From the NCBI GenBank assembly GCA_026994965.1, contig JALWPO010000154.1:163-64162 (forward strand): DNA of 64,000 bases, in the 5' to 3' direction. Shown here one piece after another: positions 39 through 57,664 of the stretch. Each line of letters opens with the position of its first letter. Position 1 is the first letter of the stretch. The position numbers and the translations under genes are program-made. The notes beneath the pieces were generated by a model, which was not told where the DNA came from, did no database searches, and saw only the letters and a list, made by a program, of their open reading frames with translations. The stretch is from Mariprofundaceae bacterium. Lineage in GTDB: Bacteria; Pseudomonadota; Zetaproteobacteria; Mariprofundales; Mariprofundaceae.

Positions 39-653
39 ATTAAAGATATGAGCAATATGTGTACCAAGTTTAAAAGTTTATTTTATATGATAAATAACAC
101 CGCAAACAGTGTTTCGCAGATACTTGCTTTGTGATTTATATCACACCTCAAAATTATCATTTGTATTACTATGCGCGCCTTGGGGGCAATCATGCTTAAA
201 CATAATTCAAAGAACCGATACCGCCAAGCGGGGTTTGGTTGGAAGGTTTATATGGGTATGTTTGTCATTTGCCTTATCATTGCCTTTCTTATGGCATAAT
301 TCATCTAAGCCTTTACCTTGAGATGTAAAACTTCTAATTACCCACCATCAAGTTACTTTTGATACAATCAACCTTGTAAAAAGTTCATCTCGCAACCCGA
401 ATTCAATATCACACTATTTCTTATGCATCGTAAATAAATCTTTACTTCAACTATTCATTTTATACTAATATAACTTTGAAATGCCAAATACAAACACGTA
501 ACTTGTGATTATCCATAAGGCTATATATAAAGTCATACAGCATCTCATACTGAACAATCCTATTTTAATTTATATATTGGTACATAACTTGCTTTTATTT
601 TTTTCATATATCACACAATGATATATAAACGGCATCAAATAGAGGTTGAGATA

Positions 654-1976
654 ATGGATAATAATCAAACAAACCAAGAAGTTTTAACACTTTTCAAAGA
701 GCTTTCTTCAGGTAATTTTTGCCATCGTGCCAATGGCGATGATGATATCATCAAACAAGCCAATGCCTTTGCCGCTAATATGGAAGCCCGTATGTTGGAA
801 CAGTTAGATGATATGGTGGGCATGACTATGGATGCCTTTGAAACCACCATGACTATGGGGCATTTGGAACAGGATATTGGAGTATTAGATGATAGAGCTA
901 TGGCCATGGCAAGTGCAAGCGAGCAAATGAGCGCCAATGTATCCCATGTCGCAGAGCGGATTGAACAAGTTAATAGCAGTATCATTAATGCCAATCAGCA
1001 AAGCACTGATGCGACAGATGCTGTTGCCCATGCTGTGGATGCTATGAGTAATATTAATCACCAGGTTGAGCAAGCTGGTGAACGCGTAGAGGCACTCACA
1101 CAAGCTTCACACGAAATTGATAGCATACTTGCTGTGATAAAAAAAATATCAGACCAAACCAATCTGCTCGCTCTTAATGCAACGATTGAAGCAGCTAGGG
1201 CAGGTGAAGTGGGTAAAGGTTTTGCCGTGGTTGCCCATGAAGTCAAAGAATTATCCCAACAGACTAAACAAGCTACAGAAAATATTGTAGAAAAGATTCA
1301 TCGTATTCAACAAGATGTGTCAGGTATTGCTGAGTCCACAGATGGTATCACTCAGGCTGTGGAACAAGGCAAACAAAATATGGATGATTTAAATGGTCGT
1401 GTAAGTGAAATATCTACTGCTTTGGATAATATTACTACTGAAGTGGATCAAATTACCGAAGCCACCAATGACCAATCTGATGCTTCTCAAGAAGTGGCAT
1501 CTTCTGTGGCAGAAACCGCTACGATGGTCGCCAATGCAAGGCATGTGGTAGACCAAACATTAAAAGATACCGATGCTATGGAAAATAAACTGGTATCTGA
1601 AATCCAAGAATTTGCTGAAATGACACTTCAAGATGCCATCTTACGTTTGGCGAAATCAGACCATGTATTATGGAAAAAACGCCTTATCAATATGATTCTT
1701 GATCGTGGTGATATTGAACTCTCCACAGTTGCCAGCCATCATGATTGCAGGCTTGGTAAATGGTACGATTCGTTGGGTCAAGATGTGTATGGTCATAGCG
1801 AAAACTTCAAAAAATTAGCCATTCCTCATGAACAGGTTCATTCACTTGGTCGCCGTGCTGTTGAACGTTATAATAATGGCGATAAAGAAGGTGCAATTGC
1901 TGATGTAGAGGCTATTGGTCCATTATCTGAAGAAGTGGTAAATCTATTGGAAGCTTTAATCGCAGAATCTAGATAA
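654..1976 (+). CDS. soluble methyl-accepting chemotaxis protein with C-terminal CZB (chemoreceptor zinc-binding) domain
   Basis: MCP signalling hairpin is present ([43 protein letters not shown]). No TM segment. The C-terminus carries the CZB pattern H..W..(x)..C.LGKWY...PHEQVH. ATG at 654 is preferred over 618 because GAGG lies 8 nt upstream. Confidence 0.9.
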
Positions 1977-1977
1977 C

Positions 1978-3369
1978 TTAATCCTTCTGTTTCATTTGGC
2001 TACTACAGTGTAGTGCAGCTATTTTATAACATTCTGCAAGTGTTGGGTAATTAAAAACATTGCGAATCAAATCGTCAATCGTGCCATTGAGATTCATTAC
2101 CATTTGTCCAATATGAACCAACTCACTGGCAGATTCACCCACAATATGTACACCCAATAATTGGCGGCTATCTTTTTCAACCAAAAGCTTTAATAGTCCG
2201 TTAGAATCACCAATAATTTGACCACGTGCAGTTTCGCGATAATAACCAAATCCTGTGACATAAGCTTTACCTTGCTGCTCAAGCTCCACCGATGTTTGCC
2301 CCACCCATGCAACTTCTGGAATAGTATAAATAGCCATAGGAAGATGACTTGAAATAATCTTTTCATCTTCATTGCATGCGTGTAGCGCTGCAATACGCCC
2401 TTGCTCCATACCAGTCGCCGCCAAAGCTGGCGAACCAATCAAATCACCAACCGCATAAATATGGGGAATGTTGGTTTGAAAATATTCATTGGTCTGAATC
2501 CAGCCACGCGTATGGCAATCAATCCCCAACATATCTAGCCCTAAACCATCTGTGTTGGGAATACGCCCCAGTGCATAAAGCAAACAATCACTTTTAATTG
2601 CGCCACTTTCACTATCAAGAATCACCTTATTTCCTTGCCGAGTGATGGATTGAATCTGTGTATTCATCTGGAACTCAATACCCATATGCAGCATACTTTT
2701 TTCAAGATTTCTAGAAATATCATTGCATAAGAAGCTTAGAATTTTTGCATGCGAATCAACCATGATGACTTCAACGCCCAGTGACGCATAAATCGTCGCA
2801 AATTCACAGGCAATCACGCCACCACCCACAATAGTGAGCTGCTTAGGAAGCTCTTGCATATGTAAGATAGAGGTAGAATCCAACACGCGTTCTTTATCAA
2901 AAGGTATCTCGTTAGGGCGACGTGGTCGAGAGCCTGTAGCTAAAATAAATTTATCTGCACATAATCTTTGTTCATCACCACGCGGCGTTTTAATACACAA
3001 GGTGTGGGCATCTATAAAGCCCGCCTCACCAGGAATTAAGGCAACCCCATTACGTAACAGTTGACTTAAAAATACAGATTCTTGTTTATCAATAACGACA
3101 TCTTTTTGACGCACCGATTCGGATAAAAAATTATGCTGCCGTATTATATCTGGATGTACATTGCGCATACCATGGCTTGCTCCCATCGTGGCACTATAAG
3201 CTATTTCACGCAGTGCTTTGCTTGGAATGGTGCCTGTTTGTAATCCTGCACCACCAATACGGGCTTTACGCTCAATAAGACCCACGCGTTTACCTCGTTT
3301 GGCAGCTTGAATGGCAGCTCTATGCCCTGCGGGACCTGAACCAATCACCAGAATATCATAGTCAGGCAT
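1978..3369 (-). CDS. SthA-like FAD/NAD(P) pyridine nucleotide-disulfide oxidoreductase family flavoprotein lacking the redox-active disulfide
   Basis: GSGPAG FAD fold and a second Rossmann motif GGGVIACEFA. The segment GGAGLQTGTIPSKALRE parallels E. coli SthA GGGCTHWGTIPSKALRH but has no Cys. The C-terminus NYPTLAECYKIAAL is SthA-like. Start at 3369 has AAGGAG 5 nt upstream, and that Shine-Dalgarno overlaps the stop of the upstream gene. Confidence 0.85.
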   Translation of the reverse strand: MPDYDILVIGSGPAGHRAAIQAAKRGKRVGLIERKARIGGAGLQTGTIPSKALREIAYSATMGASHGMRNVHPDIIRQHNFLSESVRQKDVVIDKQESVFLSQLLRNGVALIPGEAGFIDAHTLCIKTPRGDEQRLCADKFILATGSRPRRPNEIPFDKERVLDSTSILHMQELPKQLTIVGGGVIACEFATIYASLGVEVIMVDSHAKILSFLCNDISRNLEKSMLHMGIEFQMNTQIQSITRQGNKVILDSESGAIKSDCLLYALGRIPNTDGLGLDMLGIDCHTRGWIQTNEYFQTNIPHIYAVGDLIGSPALAATGMEQGRIAALHACNEDEKIISSHLPMAIYTIPEVAWVGQTSVELEQQGKAYVTGFGYYRETARGQIIGDSNGLLKLLVEKDSRQLLGVHIVGESASELVHIGQMVMNLNGTIDDLIRNVFNYPTLAECYKIAALHCSSQMKQKD

Positions 3370-3379
3370 ATGCACTCCT

Positions 3380-3889
3380 TTATGTTGCATTCAAGAGCGC
3401 AAGGATGGCTTGAATAAGATCAGTGGGGGTAGGAGGGCAACCATGCACCACAGCATCCACAGGAATAATATCAGCAACACTACCCGCAATGGCATAATTA
3501 TCTTTGCCAAACACACCACAGTTAGCTGCGCAATCACCCATGGCAAGCACAAGTTTGGGTGAAGGCATGGCATCATAAGTCATCTCTAAGGCTGTTTTCA
3601 TATTGATACTCACTGGACCTGTCACCAACAGCATATCGGCAAAGCGAGGGCTGGCTGTAAAATGCACGCCAAAGCGCTCAATATCATAATAAGCATTGTT
3701 CGCAGCGTGAATTTCAAGTTCACAACCATTGCAAGAGCCAGCATCAACAAGGCGAATGGCAAGCGAGCCTTGAAAATGTTTGCGAATCGCATCCTTTAAT
3801 TCAGCACCCATGACTTCAAAAGCCTCACTGCTTTTTAATGGCTCAGTAATACTACCGATTTTACTGATTTGCTGTAAGATTCTTAACAT
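3380..3889 (-). CDS. NuoB/HyfI/HycG-like small subunit (one [4Fe-4S] cluster) of a group-4-hydrogenase-related complex
   Basis: All four cluster cysteines are present: GSCNGCELEI, GDCAANCGVFG, HGCPPTP. The 169-aa size is typical of HycG/EchC/NuoB. Confidence 0.9.
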   Translation of the reverse strand: MLRILQQISKIGSITEPLKSSEAFEVMGAELKDAIRKHFQGSLAIRLVDAGSCNGCELEIHAANNAYYDIERFGVHFTASPRFADMLLVTGPVSINMKTALEMTYDAMPSPKLVLAMGDCAANCGVFGKDNYAIAGSVADIIPVDAVVHGCPPTPTDLIQAILALLNAT

Positions 3890-3898
3890 ATCAGCACC

Positions 3899-5503
3899 TC
3901 ACACATCATGACCCGAATACGAGCAGTTAAACGATTTGTTCACCAATGGAAAATCAGGCACAGGCACTGTGCGCACAGCCAATTCTAAACCCAACCAATT
4001 GATGACTGATGGATCACGTACAAAATATCGATCGATTAAACCATCTGTACCAAAGCGTACCCAAGCAGCAATTTCTCCACGCCAAGATTCGATTGCCGCA
4101 AAGCCAGACACACCAGCTTCTGGAGCAACCCAATCTGTTTGGATACTTCCCTTTGGGAGGTTTTCAAGCATCTGAATAATCATGCGAGAGGAGCTCGCAA
4201 TTTCTTCAAATCGAACCCACACACGTGTAGAGACACCACCTTGTTCACCTTTTGGAATAGCAATATCGAGTTCATCATAAGGAGCGTAAGCCTCTTCAAT
4301 ACGTTCATCAGCTTCATGCCCTGAAGCCCGACCAACATACCCAAGCAGCCCAATATCTTTGGCATCATCCACACCCACAATACCCGCACCAATCACCCGT
4401 TGTTGAATCGATGCGGTATCCGCATAAATAGCTCTAAGATGCTCAACCTCTACAGCAATATCACGGGTTTGCTGTATAAGTTTCTGGCATGCTTCCTCGC
4501 TTACATCATGTGCAACACCGCCCAAGGTCAAAGTATTCATCAACAATCTGTGCCCAAAAACATCATGGTGTAAACGCGCCATATCTTCACGTAAGCGTGA
4601 GCATTGCACATGCATAAATGCAAATGCTGCATCATTGCAAATCGCCCCAATATCACCAATATGATTGGCAATACGTTCGCGCTCACACAAGATGCCACGA
4701 ATATAATCACAGCGTTTGGAAGTCATAACGTCCGCAGCATATTCGCAGGCTTGTGCAAATGCCCAGCTATGCCCCACGCTCGTATCCCCTGAAATGTGAC
4801 CTGCCAGCATCAATCCATCTGAAGCTGTCCGCCCTTGCATGCTTTTTTCAATACCTTTATGCACATAACCCAAGCGCTCTTCCATATTAAGGATTTTCTC
4901 ACCTACGGCTAAAAAACGAAAATGCCCAGGTTCAATAATCCCTGCATGCACAGGTCCTACTGGAATTTCATACACCGATTCACTCTCACAAGACACATAA
5001 TCATAATCCACCTGGGCTCGCCCCGCATCAGGCTGCATGGGTGAATGCCCATCAAAATCATCCAACAAAGGATGCGCATCTGCCTTCCAGTGTTCATGCT
5101 TAATCCACGGACGTGTATCAGGCATATCTTTTATGCTAATACCAAACATATCCTGCATATGCCGCTCCATACGGTACGCAGCGATATAGTGCTCACTAAT
5201 CGTAAGCACCTCGGGATTATCTTCTTGTAGCGGTGTACGCAGCAACACATGCCTATGCTCTGGATGAGCAAATGCCATATAGCTATACAATGTCTTCGCG
5301 TCATCATGCCTACCTGCCAAAGCTGCCCACACAGCCACAAAGCGCATCTCCAATCGTTTGGCTTCCTCAGCTGCATCCGCCCAATCCAAACGGCGAATTT
5401 CTAAACATGGCATATGGGCAGGATGATGATCTTCAAGGTATTGCGAATGAATACCATGATCACCCAAACGTTCGGCGAACCAAGTATTGCTTAATGCGGT
5501 CAT
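3899..5503 (-). CDS. NuoC-NuoD fusion / HycE-HyfG-like large subunit lacking most NiFe-ligand cysteines
   Basis: GPVHAGIIEPGHFRF, LGYVHKGIEK and RGILCERERIANHIGDIG are typical of group 4 large subunits. The N-terminal 150 aa are NuoC-like. The ligand motifs are degenerate (see findings). ATG at 5503 overlaps the upstream stop as ATGA. Confidence 0.9.
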   Translation of the reverse strand: MTALSNTWFAERLGDHGIHSQYLEDHHPAHMPCLEIRRLDWADAAEEAKRLEMRFVAVWAALAGRHDDAKTLYSYMAFAHPEHRHVLLRTPLQEDNPEVLTISEHYIAAYRMERHMQDMFGISIKDMPDTRPWIKHEHWKADAHPLLDDFDGHSPMQPDAGRAQVDYDYVSCESESVYEIPVGPVHAGIIEPGHFRFLAVGEKILNMEERLGYVHKGIEKSMQGRTASDGLMLAGHISGDTSVGHSWAFAQACEYAADVMTSKRCDYIRGILCERERIANHIGDIGAICNDAAFAFMHVQCSRLREDMARLHHDVFGHRLLMNTLTLGGVAHDVSEEACQKLIQQTRDIAVEVEHLRAIYADTASIQQRVIGAGIVGVDDAKDIGLLGYVGRASGHEADERIEEAYAPYDELDIAIPKGEQGGVSTRVWVRFEEIASSSRMIIQMLENLPKGSIQTDWVAPEAGVSGFAAIESWRGEIAAWVRFGTDGLIDRYFVRDPSVINWLGLELAVRTVPVPDFPLVNKSFNCSYSGHDV

Positions 5504-6963
5504 GCCCCGCCCCCAACAATCAATGCAGCCGCTTGATGATACCACTGGGATAGAAACATAGGGATGGATAAACCCAAAATCAGCGCCAAACCAAAATGAA
5601 TATATACTGGCATCATATTCACATGCACATGCTTGGCGTGTTCTGCTGTATCACCATATACCATGGGTTGCACAAATCGAAACAAGCCACCCATAGCAAT
5701 CAATAGACCCAATAATAAGGGCACAGCAAGCCAAGGATAGGATTCCAGTGTGGCGGTAAAAAGTAAAAACTCACTCATAAATACGCCAAAGGGTGGAAAG
5801 CCTGCAATCGCAGCTGTGCCAATCAATAAACCCCAGCCAATCCCTGGATGATGAGAAATCAAACCGCGAATCTCTGCCATTTTTTGTGTGCCCATCACTT
5901 GTGCTGCATGCCCAACGGTAAAAAATATGCCTGATTTTACCAATGAATGCACCGTCATGTGCAGCAATGCTGCAAAGGCGGCAAGCGGTGTTCCGATGCC
6001 AAATGCAAAGGTCATCAAGGCCATATGTTCAATGGAGGAAAAGGAAAACATACGTTTAATATCGCGCTGTTTGTGCAACGCCATCGCAGCAACAAGCAAG
6101 GATAGCAAACCAAAACCCATCATCATATGCCCTGCCATATCCGTATGGGTAGATCCATCGACCAACATTTTAAAACGCACCAAGGCATACAAAGCAAGAT
6201 TGAGCAGCAAACCTGATAATACTGCCGATACAGGTGTTGGACCTTCACCATGCGCATCAGGCAACCATGCATGCATGGGAACCAATCCCACTTTGGTGCC
6301 ATAACCCACCATTAGAAAACAAAAGGCAATGCCCATCACCGCTGGGTCTAACTGACCCGCATGTGCATAAAGCAATGACCATGTGAGTGCTTCATTACCA
6401 TGTCCAAGTATGGTTGAGGAAGTGAAAAATACCAAAATGGTTCCAAAGAGGGCAAGCGCAATCCCCATGCCGCATAAAATAAAATATTTCCATGCCGCAG
6501 CAATCGATGCGGGCGTGCGATACAACGAAACCAATAAGACCGTAGCAAGGGTTGCCAATTCCAATGACACCCAAAGCACACCAATATTATTGGTGGTAAA
6601 GCCGAGCAACATACCCAATTGAAAAAGTTGATACATGCTGTGATACAAGCGCAGGCGCTTTTCGTTAACGCGACCAATCTCAAGCTCATGCTGCATATAA
6701 GGCTTAGAAAAGATGGTCGTGGTCATACCTACAAAAGCCGTTAAAGAAACTAGGAAAACATTATAGGCATCCAAATAAAACCAACCATTGAATGTTGCGA
6801 GTGATGCCTGCCCTAACACTTGCAAAGCCAGCAAAATACTGAATGTAAAAGTCGTGACGGAAGTTAGGATATTGAGTTTTGCCGCAAGTTTTGGATTACG
6901 GAGTACGCCCAAGACCATGCCTCCGAGCAAGGGTGTTAATAATGTCGCAATAAAAAAGTTCAT
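5500..6963 (-). CDS. antiporter-like membrane subunit (HyfF/NuoN/Mrp-type, Proton_antipo_M family)
   Basis: 487 aa and polytopic. Motifs include WLPDAHGEGPTPVSAVLSG and SSIEHMALM..HSLVKSGIFF, characteristic of NuoL/M/N-HyfBDF proteins. Confidence 0.85.
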   Translation of the reverse strand: MNFFIATLLTPLLGGMVLGVLRNPKLAAKLNILTSVTTFTFSILLALQVLGQASLATFNGWFYLDAYNVFLVSLTAFVGMTTTIFSKPYMQHELEIGRVNEKRLRLYHSMYQLFQLGMLLGFTTNNIGVLWVSLELATLATVLLVSLYRTPASIAAAWKYFILCGMGIALALFGTILVFFTSSTILGHGNEALTWSLLYAHAGQLDPAVMGIAFCFLMVGYGTKVGLVPMHAWLPDAHGEGPTPVSAVLSGLLLNLALYALVRFKMLVDGSTHTDMAGHMMMGFGLLSLLVAAMALHKQRDIKRMFSFSSIEHMALMTFAFGIGTPLAAFAALLHMTVHSLVKSGIFFTVGHAAQVMGTQKMAEIRGLISHHPGIGWGLLIGTAAIAGFPPFGVFMSEFLLFTATLESYPWLAVPLLLGLLIAMGGLFRFVQPMVYGDTAEHAKHVHVNMMPVYIHFGLALILGLSIPMFLSQWYHQAAALIVGGGA

Positions 6964-7643
6964 TCGTCATCATCCTTTTGGATTAAGGATGATTGCATGG
7001 TATCAATTTCCATGGAATCAAATGTATTACGAATTTGAAAGAAAAATAACCCAAAAATCAGCGCCGCAATCAGCACATCAAAAGCAATCCCTATTTCAAC
7101 CACCAATGGCATTCCATTGGTCGCGCCAATGGCTGCGAAGAACAAGGAATTTTCCACAGCAAGAAAACCAATCACTTGAGTAATCGCTTTTTTACGGGTA
7201 ATCATCATCAACATACTGAGCAACACGCAAGCTGTGGCAATCGCCATAGAATTACGTGTCAATAATTCCGATGTAACCTCAATCGGCTGAATAATATGAA
7301 ATGAAAATAATGTAACAGCCACTGCAATCACCATGGTTATACCGCTGTTCATCAGTGGCTCAACTTCACGATGCACATGAAGCTTACGAATCACTCGCCA
7401 TAGCATCCAAGGTAGCAATAAGCCTTTAAGTAAAAACGTCATCATCGCAGAAATATAAAGCTCAGTTTCGCCTGTACTATAGGCCACCACAGCCGCTGTT
7501 GCTGCCAAGAGCAACCCCTGCCCTGCAAACCAACGTAAAACAGAAAGCATACGATGTTGTGCAAGAAGAGAAAATGAAATAAGTAAGGTTAAAGCTGCCA
7601 TGCCATCGATAATTTGTTGGGCAAACTGTTGAGAAAAAGTCAT
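6960..7643 (-). CDS. HyfE-like small polytopic membrane subunit (NuoK/J-related)
   Basis: About 227 aa and hydrophobic, with a GFLAVENSLFFAA motif as in HyfE. It sits between the HyfC-like and HyfF-like genes. The track start at 7697 is a TTG, so the ATG at 7643 is preferred. Confidence 0.7.
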   Translation of the reverse strand: MTFSQQFAQQIIDGMAALTLLISFSLLAQHRMLSVLRWFAGQGLLLAATAAVVAYSTGETELYISAMMTFLLKGLLLPWMLWRVIRKLHVHREVEPLMNSGITMVIAVAVTLFSFHIIQPIEVTSELLTRNSMAIATACVLLSMLMMITRKKAITQVIGFLAVENSLFFAAIGATNGMPLVVEIGIAFDVLIAALIFGLFFFQIRNTFDSMEIDTMQSSLIQKDDDE

Positions 7644-7791
7644 GCCCAGAGACCTCTGCACCGCAGTGATTTTTTGAGCGAACCAAGGCAAAAACAATCC
7701 TGAAACCGCAGTTTGCTGTTTGCAAATGAGGATTGAAGGGCTGTTTTTAACGCAGATGCAGCCAAAAAGGCGCGCGATGCTGAGATCTCGC

Positions 7792-8739
7792 TCATACAGC
7801 CACCTCCAGCATGTAGTGAATAATTAATCCCAAAAAAGCGAGCACAAAAGCAGCACCTAAATACTGTGGTACTTCAAACATTCGCAACTTCGCCATGGAT
7901 GTTTCCATCACTGCCAAAATCACAAACAACACCATTAACTTGGCAATCCATATCATCAAAGCCAATGCAATGGTCACTAAACTTGCATCACCACTGATGC
8001 CCCATGGAAAAAATAAATCGATGATGAGCGTAGCAAATAATAATAATTTTACCGCTGATGCCCATTCCATCAGGGCTAAATGTCGCCCTGAATACTCCAG
8101 CAACATGGCTTCATGAATCATGGTAAGTTCCAAGTGTGTGCTAGGGTTATCAATGGGAATACGCCCTGTTTCTACAATAGCAATCATCAACATCGCAACC
8201 AAAGCAAAAGCAATCGAAGGTTGAATCAATAATGGGGTATGCAGTGTATGCGCAATCATGGTTGTGAGATTGGTGCTGTGCGCGCCAATCGCCAATACAA
8301 ATATACTCATCAACATAGCAGGTTCAGCCAATGCGGAAAAAGTCATTTCCCGGCTTGCGCCCATGCCACCAAAGGCAGTGCCAATATCCATGCCTGCCAG
8401 TGATAAGAAAAAACGCCCCAAGGCTAACAGTGCAACCAAGGCAATCACATCTGCCGTCAAGGATAGAGGTGTATCCAGTAATAATGATGGGACTACGCTT
8501 GCCGCCATCACCGTTGCCGTAAATACTACATAAGGCGCAAACCGAAAAATCCATGATGCATGATCTGCCAGCACTACTTCTTTATTGAATAATTTTTGTA
8601 TATCACGCCATGGTTGCATGATGCCTGCGCCACGTCTGTTTTGCAGACGCGCTTTGACGGTGCTGACAAACCCTAGCACTAATGGTGCGAACATCACCAT
8701 CAGCACAGCTTGCAAAAGTTGGAAAAAAATAGAACTCAT
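7792..8739 (-). CDS. HyfC/HycD/NuoH-like membrane subunit
   Basis: The N-terminus LLQAVLMVMFAPLVLGFVSTVKARLQNRRGAGIMQPWRDIQKLFNKE is the HycD/HyfC signature. 315 aa, polytopic. Confidence 0.85.
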   Translation of the reverse strand: MSSIFFQLLQAVLMVMFAPLVLGFVSTVKARLQNRRGAGIMQPWRDIQKLFNKEVVLADHASWIFRFAPYVVFTATVMAASVVPSLLLDTPLSLTADVIALVALLALGRFFLSLAGMDIGTAFGGMGASREMTFSALAEPAMLMSIFVLAIGAHSTNLTTMIAHTLHTPLLIQPSIAFALVAMLMIAIVETGRIPIDNPSTHLELTMIHEAMLLEYSGRHLALMEWASAVKLLLFATLIIDLFFPWGISGDASLVTIALALMIWIAKLMVLFVILAVMETSMAKLRMFEVPQYLGAAFVLAFLGLIIHYMLEVAV

Positions 8740-10757
8740 GCGAATACCGCCAAAAGAAAGAGCACTGTTGCAAAGGTGTATGCCAAATAAGCATGAATAC
8801 CGCGTTGATGCTCATGGCGAATGATTTTGGCAAGCCAAAGCGTGGCATGACCAATCGGTTGATAGACCTGCTTCACCACCATATCACTGACATGTACAAT
8901 ATATTTTACACGCGTGGTGAGTAATGCATGCTTATGGCGCTCTGCATGTTCGTGTTCTTCTGGTTGATATAAATCCACAAAAATACGTCGCAAAGGTTGA
9001 GAAAAACTAGCAGCATTGTATTGCATACGCGCGTGGGTATGTGGATTGCCACAACTCCACATTTTACTGCGTCGAATATGATTGCCTTTGGGGTGTAGCC
9101 ACCAAAATGCTAAGCCACCAAGCAATAACATACCTATCAGTGCTAAAGGCGCTGAATAAGAAGCGCGCTCTGCATCCATGGGCGTAAGCCAAACCCAACT
9201 ATGATTATGCAACGATGATAGCATGGATGTGTGCAACAATGCCTGCGGCACATGATCCAATAAAGGTATGAACAACGTGGGAAGAAGCCCAAGCAATAAA
9301 CAACATACTGCGGGTATCACCATGCCGAATTTCATCCACATATCGACTTCTTTAGCATCTGCTACAGCCTCGCTACGTGCATGACCCAAGAAAACCACAC
9401 CAAAGACTTTGACAAAACAAGTTGCCGCTAATGCCCCTGCCAATGCCAACATCGCAGCAGAGAAAGGAACCATGGCAGTAAGCAGTGCGCCTCCCAATTG
9501 CGGAGCCATCAATGCAGTTTGAAAGGTTAACCACTCAGAGACAAATCCATTGAACGGTGGCAATGCCGAAATGGAAATACACGCTACAAGGAACAAGCCC
9601 GATGTCCACGGCATACGATGAATCAAACCACCCATTTTTTCCATATTGCGTGTGCCTGTTTTATGCAGCACTGCACCAGCACCCATAAATAATAGCCCTT
9701 TAAACAGCGCATGATTGATGGTGTGATACAAGGCTGCAATCAAACCCAATGCTGCCAGTGTTGGGTGATTAAAATGTGCGAGCAACATACCCAAGCCCAA
9801 GCCAATCAAAATAATACCAATATTCTCAATGGAGTGATAAGCCAGCAAACGTTTTAAATCATGTTGTTGTAATGCCATGAGTACGCCAGATACCGCAGAG
9901 CTGGAACCAGCCGCCAATACCAATGCGCCCCACCACCATTGAAAATCACCACTACCCATCAAATCCCAAGTGATACGAATAAAACCAAAGATTGCGACCT
10001 TCAACATAATACCACTCATCAATGCCGATACATTCGATGGTGCAACAGGATGCGCATCAGGCAACCAGCCATGCATGGGAACCACGCCAGCCTTGGTACC
10101 AAAACCAAAACCTGCCAATAAAAATGCCACCGATGCCCATAATGGTGAGATAGAAGCTTCACGCATGGCAGAAAATTCAAACGAGCCCGATACAGCATAG
10201 AGCGTAGCAAAACTTCCCATAATCAATAGCCCTGCCATATGTGCCATCAGTAAATAAATAAAGCCTGCTTTGCGATTTTCAGGGTATTGATGTTCGTGTG
10301 TCACAAGAAAATAAGAGGATACGCTCATCAATTCCCAATATAACATAAAGGTAAACGCATCATCGGATAACACCACGCCCATCATGCCCAACACAAATAA
10401 GGGCAAGAAAATCGCTAGCGGTGTGAGTTTCTTTTCATGGCTTAAATAACCATAGCTATAAATAGAAACAGGCAATGTTAATGAACCAATCACCAATAAA
10501 AAGAATGAACCCAAAGCATCCAAACGCAGGTGCATGGGTAACCATGGTAATCCTAAAGGTAGAGTGATACTACCCCCACCTGAAATAAGCCCTGTAAAAC
10601 CAGCCACGACTGCAAGCAAACCACTGATGGCCAACAAAGCACTCAAAGCAATACGTTGAATCGTGGGATTACTTTGTAAACAAGGGGCTGCAACCGCAGC
10701 GATGACCATAGATAAGCACGCCCCAAGCGCCATATGTAATGAAAGCACAGCCATCAT
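8736..10757 (-). CDS. HyfB/HycC/NuoL-like antiporter-like membrane subunit
   Basis: 673 aa. Motifs include WLPDAHPVAPSNVSALMSGIMLK and AYHSIENIGIILIGLG..NHALFKGLLFMGAG. It overlaps the downstream gene by 4 nt. Confidence 0.85.
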   Translation of the reverse strand: MMAVLSLHMALGACLSMVIAAVAAPCLQSNPTIQRIALSALLAISGLLAVVAGFTGLISGGGSITLPLGLPWLPMHLRLDALGSFFLLVIGSLTLPVSIYSYGYLSHEKKLTPLAIFLPLFVLGMMGVVLSDDAFTFMLYWELMSVSSYFLVTHEHQYPENRKAGFIYLLMAHMAGLLIMGSFATLYAVSGSFEFSAMREASISPLWASVAFLLAGFGFGTKAGVVPMHGWLPDAHPVAPSNVSALMSGIMLKVAIFGFIRITWDLMGSGDFQWWWGALVLAAGSSSAVSGVLMALQQHDLKRLLAYHSIENIGIILIGLGLGMLLAHFNHPTLAALGLIAALYHTINHALFKGLLFMGAGAVLHKTGTRNMEKMGGLIHRMPWTSGLFLVACISISALPPFNGFVSEWLTFQTALMAPQLGGALLTAMVPFSAAMLALAGALAATCFVKVFGVVFLGHARSEAVADAKEVDMWMKFGMVIPAVCCLLLGLLPTLFIPLLDHVPQALLHTSMLSSLHNHSWVWLTPMDAERASYSAPLALIGMLLLGGLAFWWLHPKGNHIRRSKMWSCGNPHTHARMQYNAASFSQPLRRIFVDLYQPEEHEHAERHKHALLTTRVKYIVHVSDMVVKQVYQPIGHATLWLAKIIRHEHQRGIHAYLAYTFATVLFLLAVFA

Positions 10758-11308
10758 CGAGAGCGAACCATTAACAATTCACATGGCTTATCGGATCGAT
10801 TGTGCCAGTTATGTTGCTTGCGTGCATCATAATAAAGCGATTGCATTTCATGCAGTGGATATTCGCGCCCATCATATGCCAACACCACATCACCACGCCG
10901 CACCCACACAAAAGCATGTGCGCTTTTAATACCATATTGATTTTCTTCAAAGCTTCCGCCTGCATCCAGTTGTACCAACATGGGCTCAAAACCAATGGGT
11001 TGATGCAATGCGGTTAAAGGAATGAAGCGACCACCTTGACTCAGTGGAACCGTAGGACGGTCATTTAAATCAAAGATTTCAATATCGCTTTGCTCGCCTG
11101 TTTCAAGAAAAAAAGCAGCTACGGCAATACCAAGCCCATCCGCAAGCTTTTCCAAGGTTGCAACCGAAGGCGAAGCTCTGCCCGATTCCAGTTGCGATAA
11201 AGCAGCCGCACTGATACCAGCTTGTTCCGCCAACATCCGTTGTGAAAGCGATTGTTGTTCACGAAGCGTTTTAATCGTAAGGGCGATGTTTTTCATAGGG
11301 CGGTGCAT
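10754..11308 (-). CDS. XRE-family HTH plus cupin domain transcriptional regulator
   Basis: The N-terminal HTH_3 reads LREQQSLSQRMLAEQAGISAAALSQLESGRASPSVATLEKLADGLG. The C-terminal roughly 100 aa look like a cupin beta-barrel (PuuR-like architecture). The stop overlaps the start of the HyfB-like gene by 4 nt. The true start may be the ATG at 11296. Confidence 0.85.
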   Translation of the reverse strand: MHRPMKNIALTIKTLREQQSLSQRMLAEQAGISAAALSQLESGRASPSVATLEKLADGLGIAVAAFFLETGEQSDIEIFDLNDRPTVPLSQGGRFIPLTALHQPIGFEPMLVQLDAGGSFEENQYGIKSAHAFVWVRRGDVVLAYDGREYPLHEMQSLYYDARKQHNWHNRSDKPCELLMVRSR

Positions 11309-11446
11309 TATTCATAATAATGGTCATATGTAAATATTATTTAACATTCTGTGGACTTTAGCACTACGGCGTTTTTTACATGAGGACTAAAAGAAGCAAT
11401 TTTAACATAGATATAGCCAAAAAGGTGAGTGGTGCAGAAGTCTCTA

Positions 11447-28495: not shown

Positions 28496-29869
28496 CTAGG
28501 CTATTTCAGCAAACTCCATGCCAGTCTGATAATCTTTGAGTTTATTCCTTAATGTTCGAATACTGATGCCAAGAAGCTTGGCTGCCTCAGTACGATTGCC
28601 TTGCACATGTTTTAAGGTTTTTTCAATCAAAACCCGTTCCATATCACGAATGCTCATCCCTGCCTGCATATCATTGGACAGAACAGCAGACTTTGTTTGT
28701 GCTGTTGGCGCAAAGCCTAAATGTTGCACCTGAATATCTGTTCCTACACTCATTAAGAATGCCCTATGCATACAGTTTTCTAACTCTCGAACATTGCCTT
28801 CCCATGGGTGTTTTTGAAGCATAGCTACAGCATCAGCATGCAAATTTGGCACAGGTTTATGATACATTTCAGAGAATTTTTCTAAAAAATGTTTGGCTAG
28901 AACCAACACATCCTTGGGTCGCTGTCGCAATGGCGGCAATTGAATCATCACCACATTCAAACGGTAGTATAAATCTTGGCGAAAATTCCCTTCTGCTACA
29001 GTTTGGGCAATATCACGGTTGCTGGTAGCAATAATCCGCACATCCACTTGAATAGGCTTTTTGCCCCCCAACCTATCCACTTCGCCTTCTTGCAATACAC
29101 GCAACAACTTTGCTTGTAGATGCAGTGGCATCTCAGTAATCTCATCAAGTAGTAATGTGCCTTCATGCGCCATCTCAAACTTGCCAGGTCTGGCATGTGT
29201 TGCGCCTGTGAATGCGCCTTTTTCATGCCCAAACAATTCAGATTCCAGTATGCCCTCAGGAATAGCTGCACAATTGATAGCCACAAATGCACCATCACGT
29301 CGATTTGAACACTGGTGGATATAACGTGACAAACGCTCTTTACCTGTCCCCGACTCTCCGCCAATCAATACTGATGCTTGGCTGGGCGCAACCAATGCTA
29401 CTTGGTCAAGCAAACGCCGCGTCTCAATATCTTGTGTGATAAAAATATCACTGCCTTGTCGTTGTGTTTCCGCCTGCCTTGTGAGTTCAGCTTGATGCTC
29501 TGCTTTACGCACATAAATACCCATCGCTTCATCAGGACAAGGAAGTATGCGATAATCAGTTACACCTAAATCCATCAAGGCCTCTGCACGCACACAATCA
29601 CCATGCTCCGCCAGCACTATCACATTAGCTTGGGGTTGTTTCTCAAAGACCCCTCTAACTTCTGATAAGACTGTCATTGAATCCCATAGCAACACAATCG
29701 CATCATCTTCTGGTAGCCAATCGGAATGACTGGATATGCGCTCATGCACACAATTAGCCTCATAAGATACAATTGGAGTGTCTGGTAATATTCGCCCCAA
29801 TTGCACACGAATATCAGCTTCTGCTTGGCTTGGAAAACCCAGTACATAAATGGGTGATTTCACACTCAT
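28496..29869 (-). CDS. sigma-54-dependent transcriptional activator with a degenerate (FleQ/FlrA-like) receiver domain
   Basis: AAA+ core with GESGTGKE, canonical GAFTGA and ELENCM. C-terminal Fis-type HTH NRTEAAKLLGISIRTLRNKL. The N-terminal REC-like fold starts IYVLGFPSQ and so lacks the acidic DD pair. Confidence 0.9.
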   Translation of the reverse strand: MSVKSPIYVLGFPSQAEADIRVQLGRILPDTPIVSYEANCVHERISSHSDWLPEDDAIVLLWDSMTVLSEVRGVFEKQPQANVIVLAEHGDCVRAEALMDLGVTDYRILPCPDEAMGIYVRKAEHQAELTRQAETQRQGSDIFITQDIETRRLLDQVALVAPSQASVLIGGESGTGKERLSRYIHQCSNRRDGAFVAINCAAIPEGILESELFGHEKGAFTGATHARPGKFEMAHEGTLLLDEITEMPLHLQAKLLRVLQEGEVDRLGGKKPIQVDVRIIATSNRDIAQTVAEGNFRQDLYYRLNVVMIQLPPLRQRPKDVLVLAKHFLEKFSEMYHKPVPNLHADAVAMLQKHPWEGNVRELENCMHRAFLMSVGTDIQVQHLGFAPTAQTKSAVLSNDMQAGMSIRDMERVLIEKTLKHVQGNRTEAAKLLGISIRTLRNKLKDYQTGMEFAEIA

Positions 29870-32911: not shown

Positions 32912-34300
32912 CTATTGCGCTTGTAGCCCTTTCTTTTTAATTTTTTCCACCAATGTCGTGCGATTCATGGATAAAAACTTAGCCGCTTGATTCTTATTCC
33001 AATCAAAGCGCTCCAATGCCGAAAGAATTAAATGGCTTTCAAATTCATCAACAATACCTTTGAAATCCAAACTTTCATGCTCTTCCACATTGATTTGAAA
33101 ACCATGCATAGCCCGTTGCGCCTCATCCAGCATACGCGATGGTAAATCTGATAAAGTGATTTCACCTTCGCGTTTAAGTGTGGCAACACGCTCCATTAAA
33201 TTTTGTAATTCTCGCACATTGCCTGGCCATGTATAGCGTAAAAAAGCTTCTTTAGCTTGCGCTTCAAAACCATCAATCGATGTGCCTTTTTTCTGATTAA
33301 ACAACCTCATAAAATGTTCGGCTAACAGCAACGAATCTTCACCGCGCTCTCTTAATGCTGGCAAATGTAAGGGAATCACATTCAACCGATAAAATAAATC
33401 CTGCCTAAAACGACCTGTGGTGATTTCATGTTCTAAATCTCGGTGTGTTGCTGCCACAATACGTACATCCACATGAATACTTTGTTGACTACCCACAGGC
33501 TCAAAACAACGCTCTTGTAACACCCGCAATAACTTCACTTGTAATTTTGAGCTCATATCGCCGATTTCATCTAAAAATATAGTGCCACCATTGGCAACTT
33601 CAAAACGCCCTGGTCTGGCACGAATCGCACCTGTAAACGCACCTTTCACGTGACCAAATAATTCAGATTCAAGCAACTCTTCAGGGATAGCGCCACAATT
33701 GATAGATACAAAAGGCTTGCTTGCACGTGTTCCTGATTTATGCAACAAATTGGCTAGAACTTCTTTCCCAGTACCCGATTCACCTGTAATCAGCACCGTA
33801 CTATCCGAATCTCCAAGCAGTTTAACCGTTTCCCTAATTTTACAAATTGAAGGACTCTGACCCAACAACATTTCTGCACTACTATCCGCTGCTACTTTTT
33901 GTTTCAATAATTGGTGTTCTTGCTTGAGTTTCCGCTTTTTAAGAAGCTCTTCAACACGGAGTGCAAGCTCATCCAAAGCAAACGGTTTTTTTAAAAAATC
34001 ATCGGCTCCCAAACGCACTGCTTCCACTGCTGTTTCTACTTCCGCATGCCCAGTCATGAGTATCATCCCCATATTGGGATCAATCGATTGAAATTCTTTA
34101 AGCAAATCAAGACCATTACCATCAGGCAATTGAATATCCAATACAGCTACATCAAACTTTCCCTGCTCCATAGCTTCTCTGGCACGCATCGCTGTCGCCG
34201 CTGTAGTGACATGATAACCCACATCCTCTAATGTTTCTTGCAGTGTTTCTCTAAGGTTATCCTCATCATCCACCAGCAACATATAAGCAGCTTGTTTCAT
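32912..34300 (-). CDS. NtrC-family sigma-54-dependent response regulator (FleR/FlrC-like)
   Basis: Canonical receiver (LLVDDEDNLRE, VLDIQLPDGNG, KKPF). AAA+ with GESGTGKE and GAFTGA. C-terminal HTH NQAAKFLSMNRTTLVEKIKK. Confidence 0.9.
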   Translation of the reverse strand: MKQAAYMLLVDDEDNLRETLQETLEDVGYHVTTAATAMRAREAMEQGKFDVAVLDIQLPDGNGLDLLKEFQSIDPNMGMILMTGHAEVETAVEAVRLGADDFLKKPFALDELALRVEELLKKRKLKQEHQLLKQKVAADSSAEMLLGQSPSICKIRETVKLLGDSDSTVLITGESGTGKEVLANLLHKSGTRASKPFVSINCGAIPEELLESELFGHVKGAFTGAIRARPGRFEVANGGTIFLDEIGDMSSKLQVKLLRVLQERCFEPVGSQQSIHVDVRIVAATHRDLEHEITTGRFRQDLFYRLNVIPLHLPALRERGEDSLLLAEHFMRLFNQKKGTSIDGFEAQAKEAFLRYTWPGNVRELQNLMERVATLKREGEITLSDLPSRMLDEAQRAMHGFQINVEEHESLDFKGIVDEFESHLILSALERFDWNKNQAAKFLSMNRTTLVEKIKKKGLQAQ

Positions 34301-34564
34301 GTATAAACTTCCCCCTGACACCCAAAACAAATTCCAGAATCAAACCCAACTATAAGCCGACTTTTTAATAAGTCAAAATTATGACGCTTTCATACACTTT
34401 GAATTAAGTTTTTATTGCCCAAAGTTGTTGCAATCGTCAAAAAACAAACAGCTCAATACAAGTACACTAGCTTCCATGGCTTACCCAGACTAAACTACGA
34501 CATATAAGCGGCAGTTCAATGATGGAGGCTTTTTATTTCAGTTTTAAAAAAACAACTTCAACGT

Positions 34565-41765: not shown

Positions 41766-42302
41766 ATGTGGTCAGAAGATGTCATCTTAGAAACTCTGCG
41801 TGCAATCGTTGTGCTTATCCTTATATTTCTGATGTTACGTGCCTATAAAAAAGATATGCAAATTAAAAGTCTAGCAGGCAGTAAATATATTTTTATCGGC
41901 TTTATCTTGATAGCTTTTGGCTCTTTGATTGATATCACTGATAATTTTCCGCAACTCAATCACTACATCGTTATCGGTGATACCCCTGTTGAAGCTTTTT
42001 TAGAAAAGGTGGTGGGCTATCTGTGTGGATTTGTGCTGCTCGCCTTAGGCATACATCAATGGTTACCCAAAGTTATCAGCTATAAGGCACATATGCAGCA
42101 GCAGTTATATCAATCGCAGCATGAAGTTAAAAAGCTTCAAGCCCTACTGCCCATTTGTGCCAGATGCAAAAAGATTCGTGATGAACAGAATCATTGGCAA
42201 CCCATTGAAAGCTATATATCCAAACATACTGAATCTGAGTTTAGCCACGGATTTTGTCCTGACTGTTTGGAAGCTGAAAAAGCCAAACTCCCACATTCAT
42301 AA
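41766..42302 (+). CDS. three-TM membrane protein with coiled coil and a C-terminal CxxC...CxxC domain
   Basis: TMs are AIVVLILIFLMLRA, YIFIGFILIAFGSLI and VGYLCGFVLLALGI. The C-terminus is LLPICARCKKIRDEQNHWQPIESYISKHTESEFSHGFCPDCLEAE. Confidence 0.7.
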   Translation: MWSEDVILETLRAIVVLILIFLMLRAYKKDMQIKSLAGSKYIFIGFILIAFGSLIDITDNFPQLNHYIVIGDTPVEAFLEKVVGYLCGFVLLALGIHQWLPKVISYKAHMQQQLYQSQHEVKKLQALLPICARCKKIRDEQNHWQPIESYISKHTESEFSHGFCPDCLEAEKAKLPHS

Positions 42303-44059: not shown

Positions 44060-44362
44060 TCAACCATGAATCATACCAAAAGCGAGATGTTGTAAGCTTT
44101 GCACCAAGAAGTTTTGCAAAAAGAAAATCACCAACAAAACAATCATCGGTGAGAAATCTATCCCCGAAAAATACGGCACACGCCTACGCACTGGAAACAA
44201 CATCGGCTCGGAAAGTTGATTGATAATGCGAACAATGGGATTGTAAGGGTCTGGGGAAACCCATGATAATATAGCCCGCGCGATAATCACAATCATAGCA
44301 AAGGATAATAGCATATCCAATATGCCCGCAAATGCTTGAATAAAATAACCCAAATAAATCAT
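44060..44362 (-). CDS. yggT: YggT family membrane protein
   Basis: 100 aa. IIARAILSWVSPDPYNPIVRIINQLSEPMLFPVRR is typical of YggT. It lies downstream of proC. Confidence 0.8.
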   Translation of the reverse strand: MIYLGYFIQAFAGILDMLLSFAMIVIIARAILSWVSPDPYNPIVRIINQLSEPMLFPVRRRVPYFSGIDFSPMIVLLVIFFLQNFLVQSLQHLAFGMIHG

Positions 44363-45165: not shown

Positions 45166-45172
45166 GGTATTC

Positions 45173-51904: not shown

Positions 51905-51905
51905 A

Positions 51906-57618: not shown

Positions 57619-57664
57619 TCCAATCACCTCAATGGGATAGGATTGCCAACCAATTCTCAATTAT

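Follow-up and report, generated by a model that had tools for sequence, protein, structure and literature searches.

RESULTS

Gene content of the ehr operon and its surroundings

A six-gene operon with the order ehrA-B-C-D-L-S is located on the minus strand (10757..3380) of the window, that is, of the whole 64,000-nucleotide stretch of DNA that was analysed, which comes from a member of the Mariprofundaceae (Zetaproteobacteria), and lies downstream of a gene for a PuuR-like HTH-cupin regulator. The genes code for NuoL-like, NuoH-like, HyfE-like, and NuoN-like proteins followed by a large and a small subunit. None of the six open reading frames is disrupted, and stop and start codons overlap. 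The product of ehrA (8736..10757, minus strand) is a NuoL/HyfB-like, antiporter-like protein of 673 aa with PF00361 and PF00662 domains and a score of 783 bits against the NCBIfam model "hydrogenase 4 subunit B" (cutoff 667). The 315-aa product of ehrB (7792..8739, minus) was identified as a NuoH/HycD-like membrane subunit from PF00146 and synteny. A HyfE-like small membrane subunit is encoded by ehrC (6960..7697, minus), which is syntenic in all loci, has no Pfam match, and reaches 90.5 bits with the NCBIfam model "hydrogenase 4 membrane subunit," under the cutoff of 136. EhrC has 245 aa when read from a TTG codon, against 213–225 aa in its homologues; translation therefore probably begins further downstream. 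The next gene, ehrD (5500..6963, minus), codes for an antiporter-like protein of 487 aa (HyfF/NuoN-M-like; PF00361) that scores 700 bits against NCBIfam "hydrogenase 4 subunit F" (cutoff 543). EhrD keeps the TM5 Glu, TM7 Lys, and TM12 Glu and has Asn at the position of the central TM8 Lys, a substitution that, judging from these residues, could mean altered or reduced pumping.

The stop codon of ehrD overlaps the start of ehrL (ATGA), which runs from an ATG at 5503 to a stop codon at 3899–3901 (5503..3899, minus strand; 534 aa). A sequence-only reading of this DNA had placed a hydrogenase-type large subunit at 3899–5503; the range is correct, and the strand is minus. The last gene, ehrS (3380..3889, minus), codes for a NuoB/HycG-like small subunit of 169 aa (PF01058) that is most similar to MbhJ (1.3e-28). 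Its [4Fe-4S] cysteines C53, C56, C120, and C151 match the cluster cysteines of MbhJ, HycG, and NuoB in alignments and do not vary among 35–38 orthologues, in line with the earlier claim that the small subunit keeps all four. C124 is an additional invariant cysteine. Open reading frames, Pfam, and NCBIfam gave no NuoA, E, F, G, I, or J gene in the operon.

The regulator gene (10754..11308, minus) overlaps the ehrA start by 4 nt. Pfam identifies an XRE-type HTH and a cupin domain in its product, and the NCBIfam PuuR match is sub-threshold. Its position upstream of the operon is conserved in Zetaproteobacteria and Nitrospinota. A sigma-70-like site occurs at 11334..11307, but site counts in the promoter and terminator scan of the locus were no better than chance.

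Beyond ehrS, sthA (1978..3390, minus) codes for a soluble Si-specific NAD(P)+ transhydrogenase (NCBIfam NF003585, 539 bits, cutoff 465) and has a probable start at 3369 (MPDYDILVIG), about 10 nt after ehrS. Only in the two closest relatives (L004 and L009) does this gene come after ehrS; elsewhere, purD or unrelated genes take its place. Given this distribution and its passing of the SthA equivalog model, sthA was rejected as a dedicated electron-input subunit and core feature of the operon. In the closest relatives, the ehr operon is followed by both sthA and rnf, which are likewise systems for shifting reducing power from one carrier to another; in the 64-kb window, only sthA is present.

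No redox partner was conserved around the distant Ehr clusters that we searched, which came from Thermodesulfovibrio, Falsiroseomonas, and metagenomic contigs. The six-gene unit is self-contained, with flanks that vary in Thermodesulfovibrio, Falsiroseomonas, and others, and no electron-input module is encoded near the operon studied here. Genes for hypA-F, hycI, and formate dehydrogenase were not found within the 64-kb window. Because other members of the Zetaproteobacteria have hyp genes that serve other hydrogenases (PMC5649172), finding or missing hyp would not be decisive.

Identity and fold of EhrL

Pfam resolved EhrL into a NuoC-like domain (PF00329) fused to a NuoD/HycE-like domain (PF00346), and the public database protein P0001 is identical to it. 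HMMER identified E. coli HycE as the best solved relative (7z0s_E, E = 2.4e-52), compared with 2.5e-32 at best for NuoD, 1.5e-29 for MbhL, and 1.6e-10 for MbsL (6u8y_L). Scores are under the NCBIfam cutoffs for both NuoD (NF004739, 167 versus 360 bits) and NuoCD (NF008728, 120 versus 840 bits), and the PF00374 match of 20.7 bits is under its gathering threshold of 25.8. The AF2 model has a pLDDT of 82.5 and a Foldseek TM score of 0.84 to 7z0s_E; pLDDT falls below 50 at residues 166–215 and 516–534, which are both former active-site segments, and the model therefore says nothing on cavity shape. All motifs quoted in the sequence-only reading were found in EhrL, including GPVHAGIIEPGHFRF, LGYVHKGIEK, and RGILCERERIANH. 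The first of these is the beta1-beta2 loop region (4913..4957, minus; residues 183–197, including Glu191); nearly all of its alignment columns are invariant, and it is common to hydrogenases.

Loss of the NiFe ligands

The former N-terminal NiFe motif of EhrL is HISGDTSVGHS (4766..4798, minus; residues 236–246), and the former C-terminal motif is FNCSYSGHDV (3902..3931, or from 3899 with the stop codon, minus; residues 525–534), which forms the C-terminus of the protein. HMMER pairs RVCGICGFAHS of HycE with HISGDTSVGHS. Both N-terminal ligand cysteines are therefore replaced, by S238 and T241, just as the Cys-to-Ser and Cys-to-Thr changes of the sequence-only reading had it. A MAFFT alignment was constructed with EhrL and 150 cluster representatives, 17 of which have four cysteines (for example P0142, RICGVCAVSHA ... 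SFELCYSCCDR). HMMER and MAFFT agree in placing S-F-N-C-S-Y-S-G-H-D-V on S-F-E-L-C-Y-S-C-x-D-R, from which it follows that ligand 3 is Ser528 and ligand 4 is Gly531. Cys527 occupies the Pro/Leu position one residue ahead of ligand 3. It had earlier been taken for ligand 3 itself, a register that was rejected because it is one residue off both in HMMER and in the alignment with the 17 four-cysteine relatives. The reported loss of ligand cysteines is thus real, but the count of three of four was too low: all four positions have changed (S238, T241, S528, and G531), and neither HMMER nor MAFFT restored a cysteine at any of them.

The absence of a C-terminal maturation peptide, also reported earlier, was seen here as well, since EhrL has no extension and its last residue aligns with the Arg that precedes the cleavage point of HycE. 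This absence is not distinctive and is uninformative because the nearest cysteine-bearing relatives likewise lack an extension and finish ..C-x-D-R. With Ser, Thr, Ser, and Gly at the NiFe-ligand positions, EhrL is unable to hold NiFe(CN)2CO or to make or consume H2; its sequence rules it out as a [NiFe] hydrogenase.

Second-sphere residues of group 4 hydrogenases are mostly kept in EhrL (H186, E191, H194, R196, E274, E276, R277, H281, Y529, and D533). G239 and D240 are invariant across the EhrL clade, and D240, D291, S528, G531, and a C-terminal Leu are near-invariant, Ehr-specific residues. Three cysteines are clade-specific and invariant: C273 and C527 in EhrL and C124 in EhrS. Covariation of C273 and C527 was sought outside the clade, where their pairing was not consistent. 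From these patterns, a repurposed EhrL cavity is plausible, with the small Ser, Thr, Ser, and Gly residues at the ex-ligand positions and the Ehr-specific aspartates D240 and D291.

In complex I, the quinone head group has His38 and Tyr87 as ligands, with Asp139 as partner (T. thermophilus Nqo4 numbering). The idea that the EhrL cavity resembles a quinone pocket fits in part. Asp291 is the equivalent of Asp139, but His38 is replaced by Ile190 and Tyr87 by Gly239, and quinone is therefore only a putative substrate.

Conservation and distribution

Values of dN/dS for ehrL against three orthologues range from 0.09 to 0.11, indicating strong purifying selection. In 120 close homologues of EhrL (54%–100% identity), ligand positions 1, 3, and 4 are never Cys, and position 2 is Cys in 11–13. 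The six-gene order is strictly kept in 41 Zetaproteobacteria loci from GTDB, including those of M. ferrooxydans PV-1 and M. erugo, and Nitrospinota carry the operon in the same order. This Zetaproteobacteria/Nitrospinota Ehr subclade is common to iron- and nitrite-oxidising lithoautotrophs.

Among 112 full-length representatives of 50% clusters, 17 have all four cysteines (CCCC) and approximately 93 are without them, with S-G-D and S-Y-S/A-G as the dominant replacements. A rough NJ tree of cluster representatives grouped the cysteine-bearing proteins essentially as a single clade, nested in or adjacent to a large radiation that lacks the cysteines and includes EhrL. Replacement motifs are near-invariant in this radiation (R-x-S-G-D..H and S-F-N-x-S-Y-S-G-x-D-L-end). 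The view that EhrL is a functional protein and not a pseudogene was borne out by dN/dS of approximately 0.1, strict synteny in the 41 loci, and an intact fold (TM 0.84). We conclude that ehrL is a real, conserved gene and an ordinary addition to the already known and widespread Ehr class, not a new kind of system.

DISCUSSION

Assignment to the Ehr class

The energy-converting-hydrogenase-related or Ech-hydrogenase-related (Ehr) complexes were described earlier (PMC6349859, PMC10284858, PMC7894505, PMC6728331). The class is defined by missing NiFe ligands, and its function is given as unknown (PMC6349859, PMC10284858, PMC10432482); Ehr-type proteins are treated as non-hydrogenases (PMC10284858, PMC6728331). 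The locus described here has group 4 homology, no NiFe cysteines, a subunit set without NuoI or NuoEFG, and ligands for one cluster in EhrS. It very probably codes for a six-subunit Ehr complex in which EhrL is the nickel-free large subunit, with redox-coupled ion translocation as its putative role.

Ehr subunits of Geobacter sulfurreducens (GSU0739-0745) include EhrA-1 (NuoL-like), EhrC (HyfE-like), EhrL, and EhrS and have been both detected and found to be regulated as proteins (PMC7894505), and Rv0081-Rv0087 of M. tuberculosis is a "hyc-like" EHR cluster (PMC6728331). Likened by published descriptions, these clusters share with our locus a group 4-related large subunit without CxxC NiFe motifs and the absence of a NuoI, NuoEFG, or formate dehydrogenase module. 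Matched by subunit names, Geobacter EhrA, EhrC, EhrL, and EhrS all have counterparts here, where NuoH-like and NuoN-like subunits are also present. The locus differs in belonging to the Zetaproteobacteria/Nitrospinota subclade and in the clade-specific invariant cysteines of EhrL (C273 and C527) and EhrS (C124). The regulator also differs, being a co-transcribed HTH-cupin protein of the operon's own here, Rv0081 in M. tuberculosis, and an ArsR-type or other protein in other lineages. We found no literature on this operon specifically in Zetaproteobacteria.

E. coli HycE (7Z0S) is the best sequence match for EhrL and has the same NuoC-NuoD fusion and fold. EhrL finishes where mature HycE finishes, and the Hyf gene order B-C-E-F-G-I resembles that of the ehr operon. 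In contrast to HycE and Hyf, there are no NiFe ligands, no C-terminal propeptide, and no HyfA, HyfH, or HycF ferredoxin-like subunits here, and the window has no formate dehydrogenase and no HycI or HyfK protease. Likeness to complex I is found in a cofactor-free large subunit beside a single N2-type [4Fe-4S] cluster, in the Asp equivalent to Nqo4 D139, and in an antiporter-like subunit with TM5 Glu, TM7 Lys, and TM12 Glu (seen in EhrD), whereas the His38/Tyr87 pair is Ile/Gly in EhrL and the ehr operon has two antiporter-like subunits only, with no N-module and no NuoI. The P. furiosus MBS/Mbx (6U8Y) and MBH (6CFW) complexes are, like Ehr, membrane-bound complex-I-like enzymes, and the large subunit of MBS is a non-hydrogenase, as is EhrL, although the match to MbsL is weak. 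MBS and MBH have approximately 13–14 subunits, among them small ones of the Mrp type and one that is NuoI-like (MbsN in MBS); open reading frames and Pfam gave no genes of either kind in the ehr operon.

Alternative explanations

The missing thiolate ligands of EhrL argue strongly against a working group 4 (Hyf/Hyc-like) [NiFe] hydrogenase with its metal held by non-canonical ligands, a reading that we consider extremely improbable. It would be compatible with HycE as the best solved relative, the NCBIfam name "hydrogenase 4 subunit B/F" for two membrane subunits, the many second-sphere residues kept, and the Cys at ligand position 2 in 11–13 of 120 clade members. However, all four ligand positions are non-Cys in EhrL, positions 1, 3, and 4 are never Cys in the 120 close homologues, PF00374 is sub-threshold, hyp, hycI, and formate dehydrogenase genes are absent from the window, and the literature classes such proteins as non-hydrogenases (PMC10284858, PMC6728331). 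Lost catalytic ligands and the absence of partner genes nearby might also be expected of a hydrogenase operon that is decaying or pseudogenised and no longer functions. Selection and conservation data rule this out: dN/dS is about 0.1 against three orthologues, the six open reading frames are intact and overlap at stop and start codons, Zetaproteobacteria as a class and Nitrospinota have identical synteny, and the replacement residues are themselves near-invariant in a very large family. Geobacter Ehr proteins are, in addition, detected and regulated (PMC7894505), and decay is hardly credible.

Public annotation would make EhrL simply the NuoC/NuoD of an NADH:quinone oxidoreductase (complex I). 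Its Complex1_30kDa and Complex1_49kDa matches in Pfam, the NCBI name "NADH-quinone oxidoreductase subunit C" of homologues, and the conserved Asp equivalent to Nqo4 D139 agree with that assignment, which is nevertheless very unlikely given NuoD and NuoCD scores far below the NCBIfam cutoffs, the absence of His38 and Tyr87 equivalents, the missing NuoA, E, F, G, I, and J genes in an operon of Hyf-like order, and a far better match to HycE than to any NuoD (2.4e-52 versus 2.5e-32). A redox-sensing or redox-gated cation/proton antiporter, in which the [4Fe-4S] redox state would switch a Mrp-like transporter and EhrL and EhrS would act without substrate turnover, is unlikely in our view. An electron-input or -output partner beside the operon is conserved in no sampled lineage, there is no NuoI-like subunit, and the EhrL pocket is without known substrate ligands; the regulator beside the cluster changes from one lineage to the next, suggesting that its role is tied to stress or to particular conditions. 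To our knowledge, however, every characterised relative with the NuoB-NuoD-NuoH module (complex I, MBH, MBS, and FHL) is a turnover-coupled enzyme, and the conservation of the pocket residues and beta1-beta2 loop is much stricter than would seem necessary for a passive sensor.

Proposed mechanism of the Ehr complex

We infer that EhrABCDLS couples redox chemistry other than that of H2 to ion translocation and has a single [4Fe-4S] cluster and an acidic cofactor-free pocket. By homology, the Ehr complex would work in the manner of the core that complex I, MBH, and FHL share. The single EhrS cluster would be reduced or oxidised beside a small polar, acidic EhrL pocket (E191, D240, D291, S238, S528, and Y529), and a signal from cluster and pocket would reach EhrD/EhrA by way of the invariant beta1-beta2 loop and of EhrB/EhrC. 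Electron transfer would in this way be coupled to H+/Na+ translocation, or ion-motive force would drive electron transfer in reverse. With neither a NuoI-like or NuoEFG-like subunit nor a partner gene that is conserved, the complex would use generic carriers. Our leading, though tentative, candidates are a soluble ferredoxin or flavodoxin, acting at the exposed cluster, and a membrane quinone at the EhrL/EhrS/EhrB interface. Iron- and nitrite-oxidising lithoautotrophs must move electrons uphill. That the Zetaproteobacteria/Nitrospinota Ehr complexes perform ion-motive-force-driven reverse electron transport from the quinol pool to a low-potential carrier (ferredoxin or flavodoxin), with the acidic, metal-free pocket or a new site formed by C273, C527, and C124 as the place of reduction, is a much more speculative proposal and rather improbable.

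Ehr complexes are a recognised missing link from membrane hydrogenases to complex I, with no known substrate or activity. The locus shows that an Ehr unit of six genes, accompanied by an HTH-cupin regulator of its own, occurs in 41 Zetaproteobacteria loci, cultivable Mariprofundus strains included, and in Nitrospinota, and it offers a tractable source for an Ehr structure. It also defines a replacement signature for the family, consisting of S-G-D...H, N-x-S-Y-S-G-x-D-L-end, and the Ehr-specific D240 and D291, the latter matching Asp139 of complex I. In practice, the locus guards against inferring H2 metabolism for these iron oxidisers. Public annotation of the homologues is misleading, with names that range from "NADH-quinone oxidoreductase subunit C" to "hydrogenase subunit" and even "HypE."

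Operon structure and conservation

The large subunit EhrL (534 aa; 5503..3899, minus strand; ATG at 5503, stop at 3899–3901) is a fusion of NuoC and NuoD domains (PF00329 and PF00346). It is encoded by the fifth gene of a densely packed minus-strand operon with overlapping stop and start codons at several junctions. The other genes, all on the minus strand, are ehrA (NuoL/HyfB-like, 673 aa, 10757..8736; 783 bits to the NCBIfam model "hydrogenase 4 subunit B", cutoff 667), ehrB (NuoH/HycD-like, 315 aa, 8739..7792), ehrC (HyfE-like small membrane protein, 7697..6960, no Pfam match), ehrD (HyfF/NuoN-like, 487 aa, 6963..5500; 700 bits, cutoff 543), and ehrS (NuoB-like, 169 aa, 3889..3380). A gene for a PuuR-like HTH-cupin regulator (11308..10754, minus strand) overlaps ehrA by 4 nt. 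The mechanically called ehrC ORF (245 aa, TTG start) is 20–30 residues longer than its homologs (213–225 aa) and leaves a 94-nt gap after ehrB; translation probably begins at a later codon, such as that of MTFSQQF.

Near-identical database proteins carry names that assign the window to the Mariprofundaceae (Zetaproteobacteria). Scanning a single genome from each GTDB species gave 41 loci, all from Zetaproteobacteria, among them M. ferrooxydans PV-1 and M. erugo. The order regulator-A-B-C-D-L-S is preserved in every complete locus, and partial contigs agree as far as their sequence extends. Nitrospinota contigs likewise carry the six-gene unit with the same HTH-cupin regulator. All close EhrL homologs (n = 120; 54%–100% identity) end in NKSFNCSYSG(N/H)D(L/V), ehrL has a dN/dS of 0.09–0.11 against three orthologs, and an AlphaFold2 model of EhrL (pLDDT 82.5) superimposes on HycE with a TM score of 0.84. 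Together, these observations exclude pseudogene and artifact readings and bear out the earlier view, taken from the sequence alone, that the protein is functional.

Loss of the NiFe ligands

In a HMMER alignment with E. coli HycE (7z0s_E, 2.4e-52), HISGDTSVGHS is opposite RVCGICGFAHS, placing Ser238 and Thr241 at the N-terminal NiFe ligand positions. Both substitutions had been proposed in the sequence-only reading, and the motifs it quoted are present. Its hand alignment of the C-terminus was off by one residue, as judged from an alignment of EhrL with 150 sequences, each representing a 50%-identity cluster; 17 of these have the complete set of four cysteines (one example being RICGVCAVSHA ... 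SFELCYSCCDR). Here SFNCSYSGHDV aligns on SFELCYSCxDR, ligands 3 and 4 are Ser528 and Gly531, and Cys527 occupies the Pro/Leu position preceding ligand 3. Ligand loss, previously counted as three of four, is therefore complete, with no cysteine at any of the four positions (S238, T241, S528, and G531).

The last residue of EhrL aligns with the Arg after which HycE is processed, and there is therefore nothing to cleave, as had been claimed. Cysteine-bearing relatives also end at ..CxDR, so the missing extension is a trait of the lineage and not an effect of metal-site loss. Of the 112 representatives that are full length, 17 retain the four cysteines and ~93 have lost them, the commonest replacements being [S/A]-G-D-[S/T/E/N] and S-Y-[S/A]-G. 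A rough neighbor-joining tree places the cysteine-bearing sequences in approximately one clade, beside a highly diverse cysteine-less radiation that includes EhrL.

Assignment to the Ehr class

Three other identities were considered and rejected. EhrL is not a hydrogenase: it has no thiolate ligands and scores below threshold for PF00374. Hyp genes, an endopeptidase, and a formate dehydrogenase were not found within the 64-kb window. A complex I NuoCD is contradicted by the NCBIfam NuoD score (167 bits vs a cutoff of 360), by Ile190 and Gly239 at the positions of Nqo4 His38 and Tyr87, and by the absence of NuoA, E, F, G, and I from the operon. An MBS/Mbx complex is contradicted by an EhrL-MbsL match of only 1.6e-10 and by the lack of Mrp-type small subunits or a NuoI-like gene in the operon. 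No NCBIfam model exceeded its threshold against EhrL. Public names of its homologs (P0007–P0120 and P0276–P0281), which include "NADH-quinone oxidoreductase subunit C," "hydrogenase subunit," "Ni,Fe-hydrogenase III large subunit," and "hydrogenase expression protein HypE," are misleading, since EhrL is none of the three rejected types.

Judged by its sequence, the locus is an Ehr complex and has every defining feature tested. The name "energy-converting hydrogenase-related" is reportedly due to Marreiros et al. 2013. Published accounts define the class as homologs of group 4 hydrogenases that lack the cysteines binding NiFe, and describe its function as unknown (PMC6349859, PMC10284858, PMC10432482, PMC7894505, PMC8691401). 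An alternative expansion is "Ech-hydrogenase-related," with Geobacter subunits EhrA-1, EhrC, EhrL, and EhrS (PMC7894505), and the Rv0081-87 cluster of M. tuberculosis has been handled as Ehr too (PMC6728331). Gene content and order here fit the subunit names in the literature. Cysteine loss is the defining feature of a class already described, so the locus adds a member. Its chief value lies in offering an Ehr that is well conserved, linked to a regulator, and present in cultivable iron oxidizers, with which to attack the question of Ehr function.

Pocket residues and possible coupling

EhrL keeps the second sphere of hydrogenases and complex I (H186, E191, H194, R196, E274, E276, R277, H281, Y529, and D533), and the beta1-beta2 loop segment (182–197) is nearly all invariant. 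Near-invariant changes specific to Ehr comprise the small residues that occupy the four ligand sites and two new aspartates: D240, where cysteine-bearing relatives have Val/Ala/Leu, and D291, where they have Gly. The residue of Nqo4 that aligns with D291 is Asp139, which in complex I pairs with the quinone-ligating His38. The vacated NiFe site would form a small, polar, acidic pocket beside a single [4Fe-4S] cluster, although the segments that build it (166–215 and 516–534) are of low confidence in the AlphaFold2 model.

Redox changes in this pocket could be passed on to EhrD/EhrA by way of the conserved loop and EhrB/EhrC, which would couple electron transfer to ion translocation, or the reverse. 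Of the charged residues typical of antiporter-like subunits, EhrD retains the Glu in TM5, the Lys in TM7, and the Glu in TM12; it has Asn at the central TM8 Lys position of MbhH, MbsH, and MrpD (..SGLLLNLALYAL..). No NuoI-like subunit or partner gene is conserved beside the cluster in any lineage sampled, which favors generic carriers; we tentatively suggest ferredoxin or flavodoxin at an exposed cluster and quinone at the membrane interface. The main rival, a redox-gated antiporter without substrate turnover, seems improbable.

Small subunit, clade-specific cysteines, and a second cluster

EhrS C53, C56, C120, and C151 align with the cluster cysteines of MbhJ, HycG, and NuoB and are invariant in 35–38 orthologs, in agreement with the four Fe-S cysteines noted before. 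An additional C124, four residues past a cluster ligand, is also invariant in this set. EhrL of Zetaproteobacteria and Nitrospinota has nearly invariant, clade-specific cysteines at 273, 527, 253, and 33; most other relatives, whether Ehr or hydrogenase, have Leu at 273 and 527. A new metal or disulfide site could be made up of these cysteines and EhrS C124. Outside the clade, no consistent covariation was observed.

In some Zetaproteobacteria, the orthologous operon is directly followed by a paralogous six-gene Ehr-type cluster (contigs L001, 12125–19659, and L034, from 12318), which is absent from the window. The large subunit of this cluster is likewise cysteine-less (VAGDSSVTH ... SFNLSYCGHDL, ~31% identity), and a 2x[4Fe-4S] ferredoxin domain at the N-terminus of its small subunit provides a built-in NuoI-like module.

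Neighboring genes and regulators

Downstream of the operon, ~10 nt 3' of ehrS, is sthA, encoding a soluble transhydrogenase (1978–3390, minus strand; 539 bits, cutoff 465) without the redox-active disulfide (GGAGLQTGTIPSKAL). It adjoins ehr only in the two closest relatives (L004, 12130–17354; L009, 12148–17558), where rnfA/B/C-like genes are next; the window has a divergent methyl-accepting chemotaxis gene (618–1976, plus strand) in their place. The sthA gene is outside the conserved ehr unit.

The remaining genes of the window are for flagella and chemotaxis, sigma-54 regulators, envelope glycosylation, and TrkA. A flagellar, motility, and chemotaxis block (11447–31905; fliP/O/N/M/L-like, motA/B-like, flgE, and fliK by ORF size and Pfam) is directly upstream of the ehr regulator, and sigma-54 activators are at 28496–29869 and 32912–34330. 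On contigs L045 and L047, too, the Ehr cluster has flagellar/Mot genes beside it. Three sizeable ORFs lack any Pfam match at E <= 1e-5 (41766–42302, plus, 178 aa; 57166–57660, minus, 164 aa; 49303–50826, minus, 507 aa), the last within an envelope-polysaccharide cluster (44359–54966) with glycosyltransferase, WbqC, and asparagine-synthase genes.

The type of adjacent regulator differs by lineage among Ehr clusters: HTH_3 with cupin (PuuR-like) in the window and Nitrospinota, HTH_17 with PTS_EIIA_2 in Thermodesulfovibrio-like contigs, and ArsR-type in others. Ehr-adjacent regulators on other contigs include L045 4036–4740 and L051 5723–6088, and the M. tuberculosis ehr-type cluster is regulated by Rv0081. 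The ligand of the cupin domain in the PuuR-like regulator might hint at the physiological signal.
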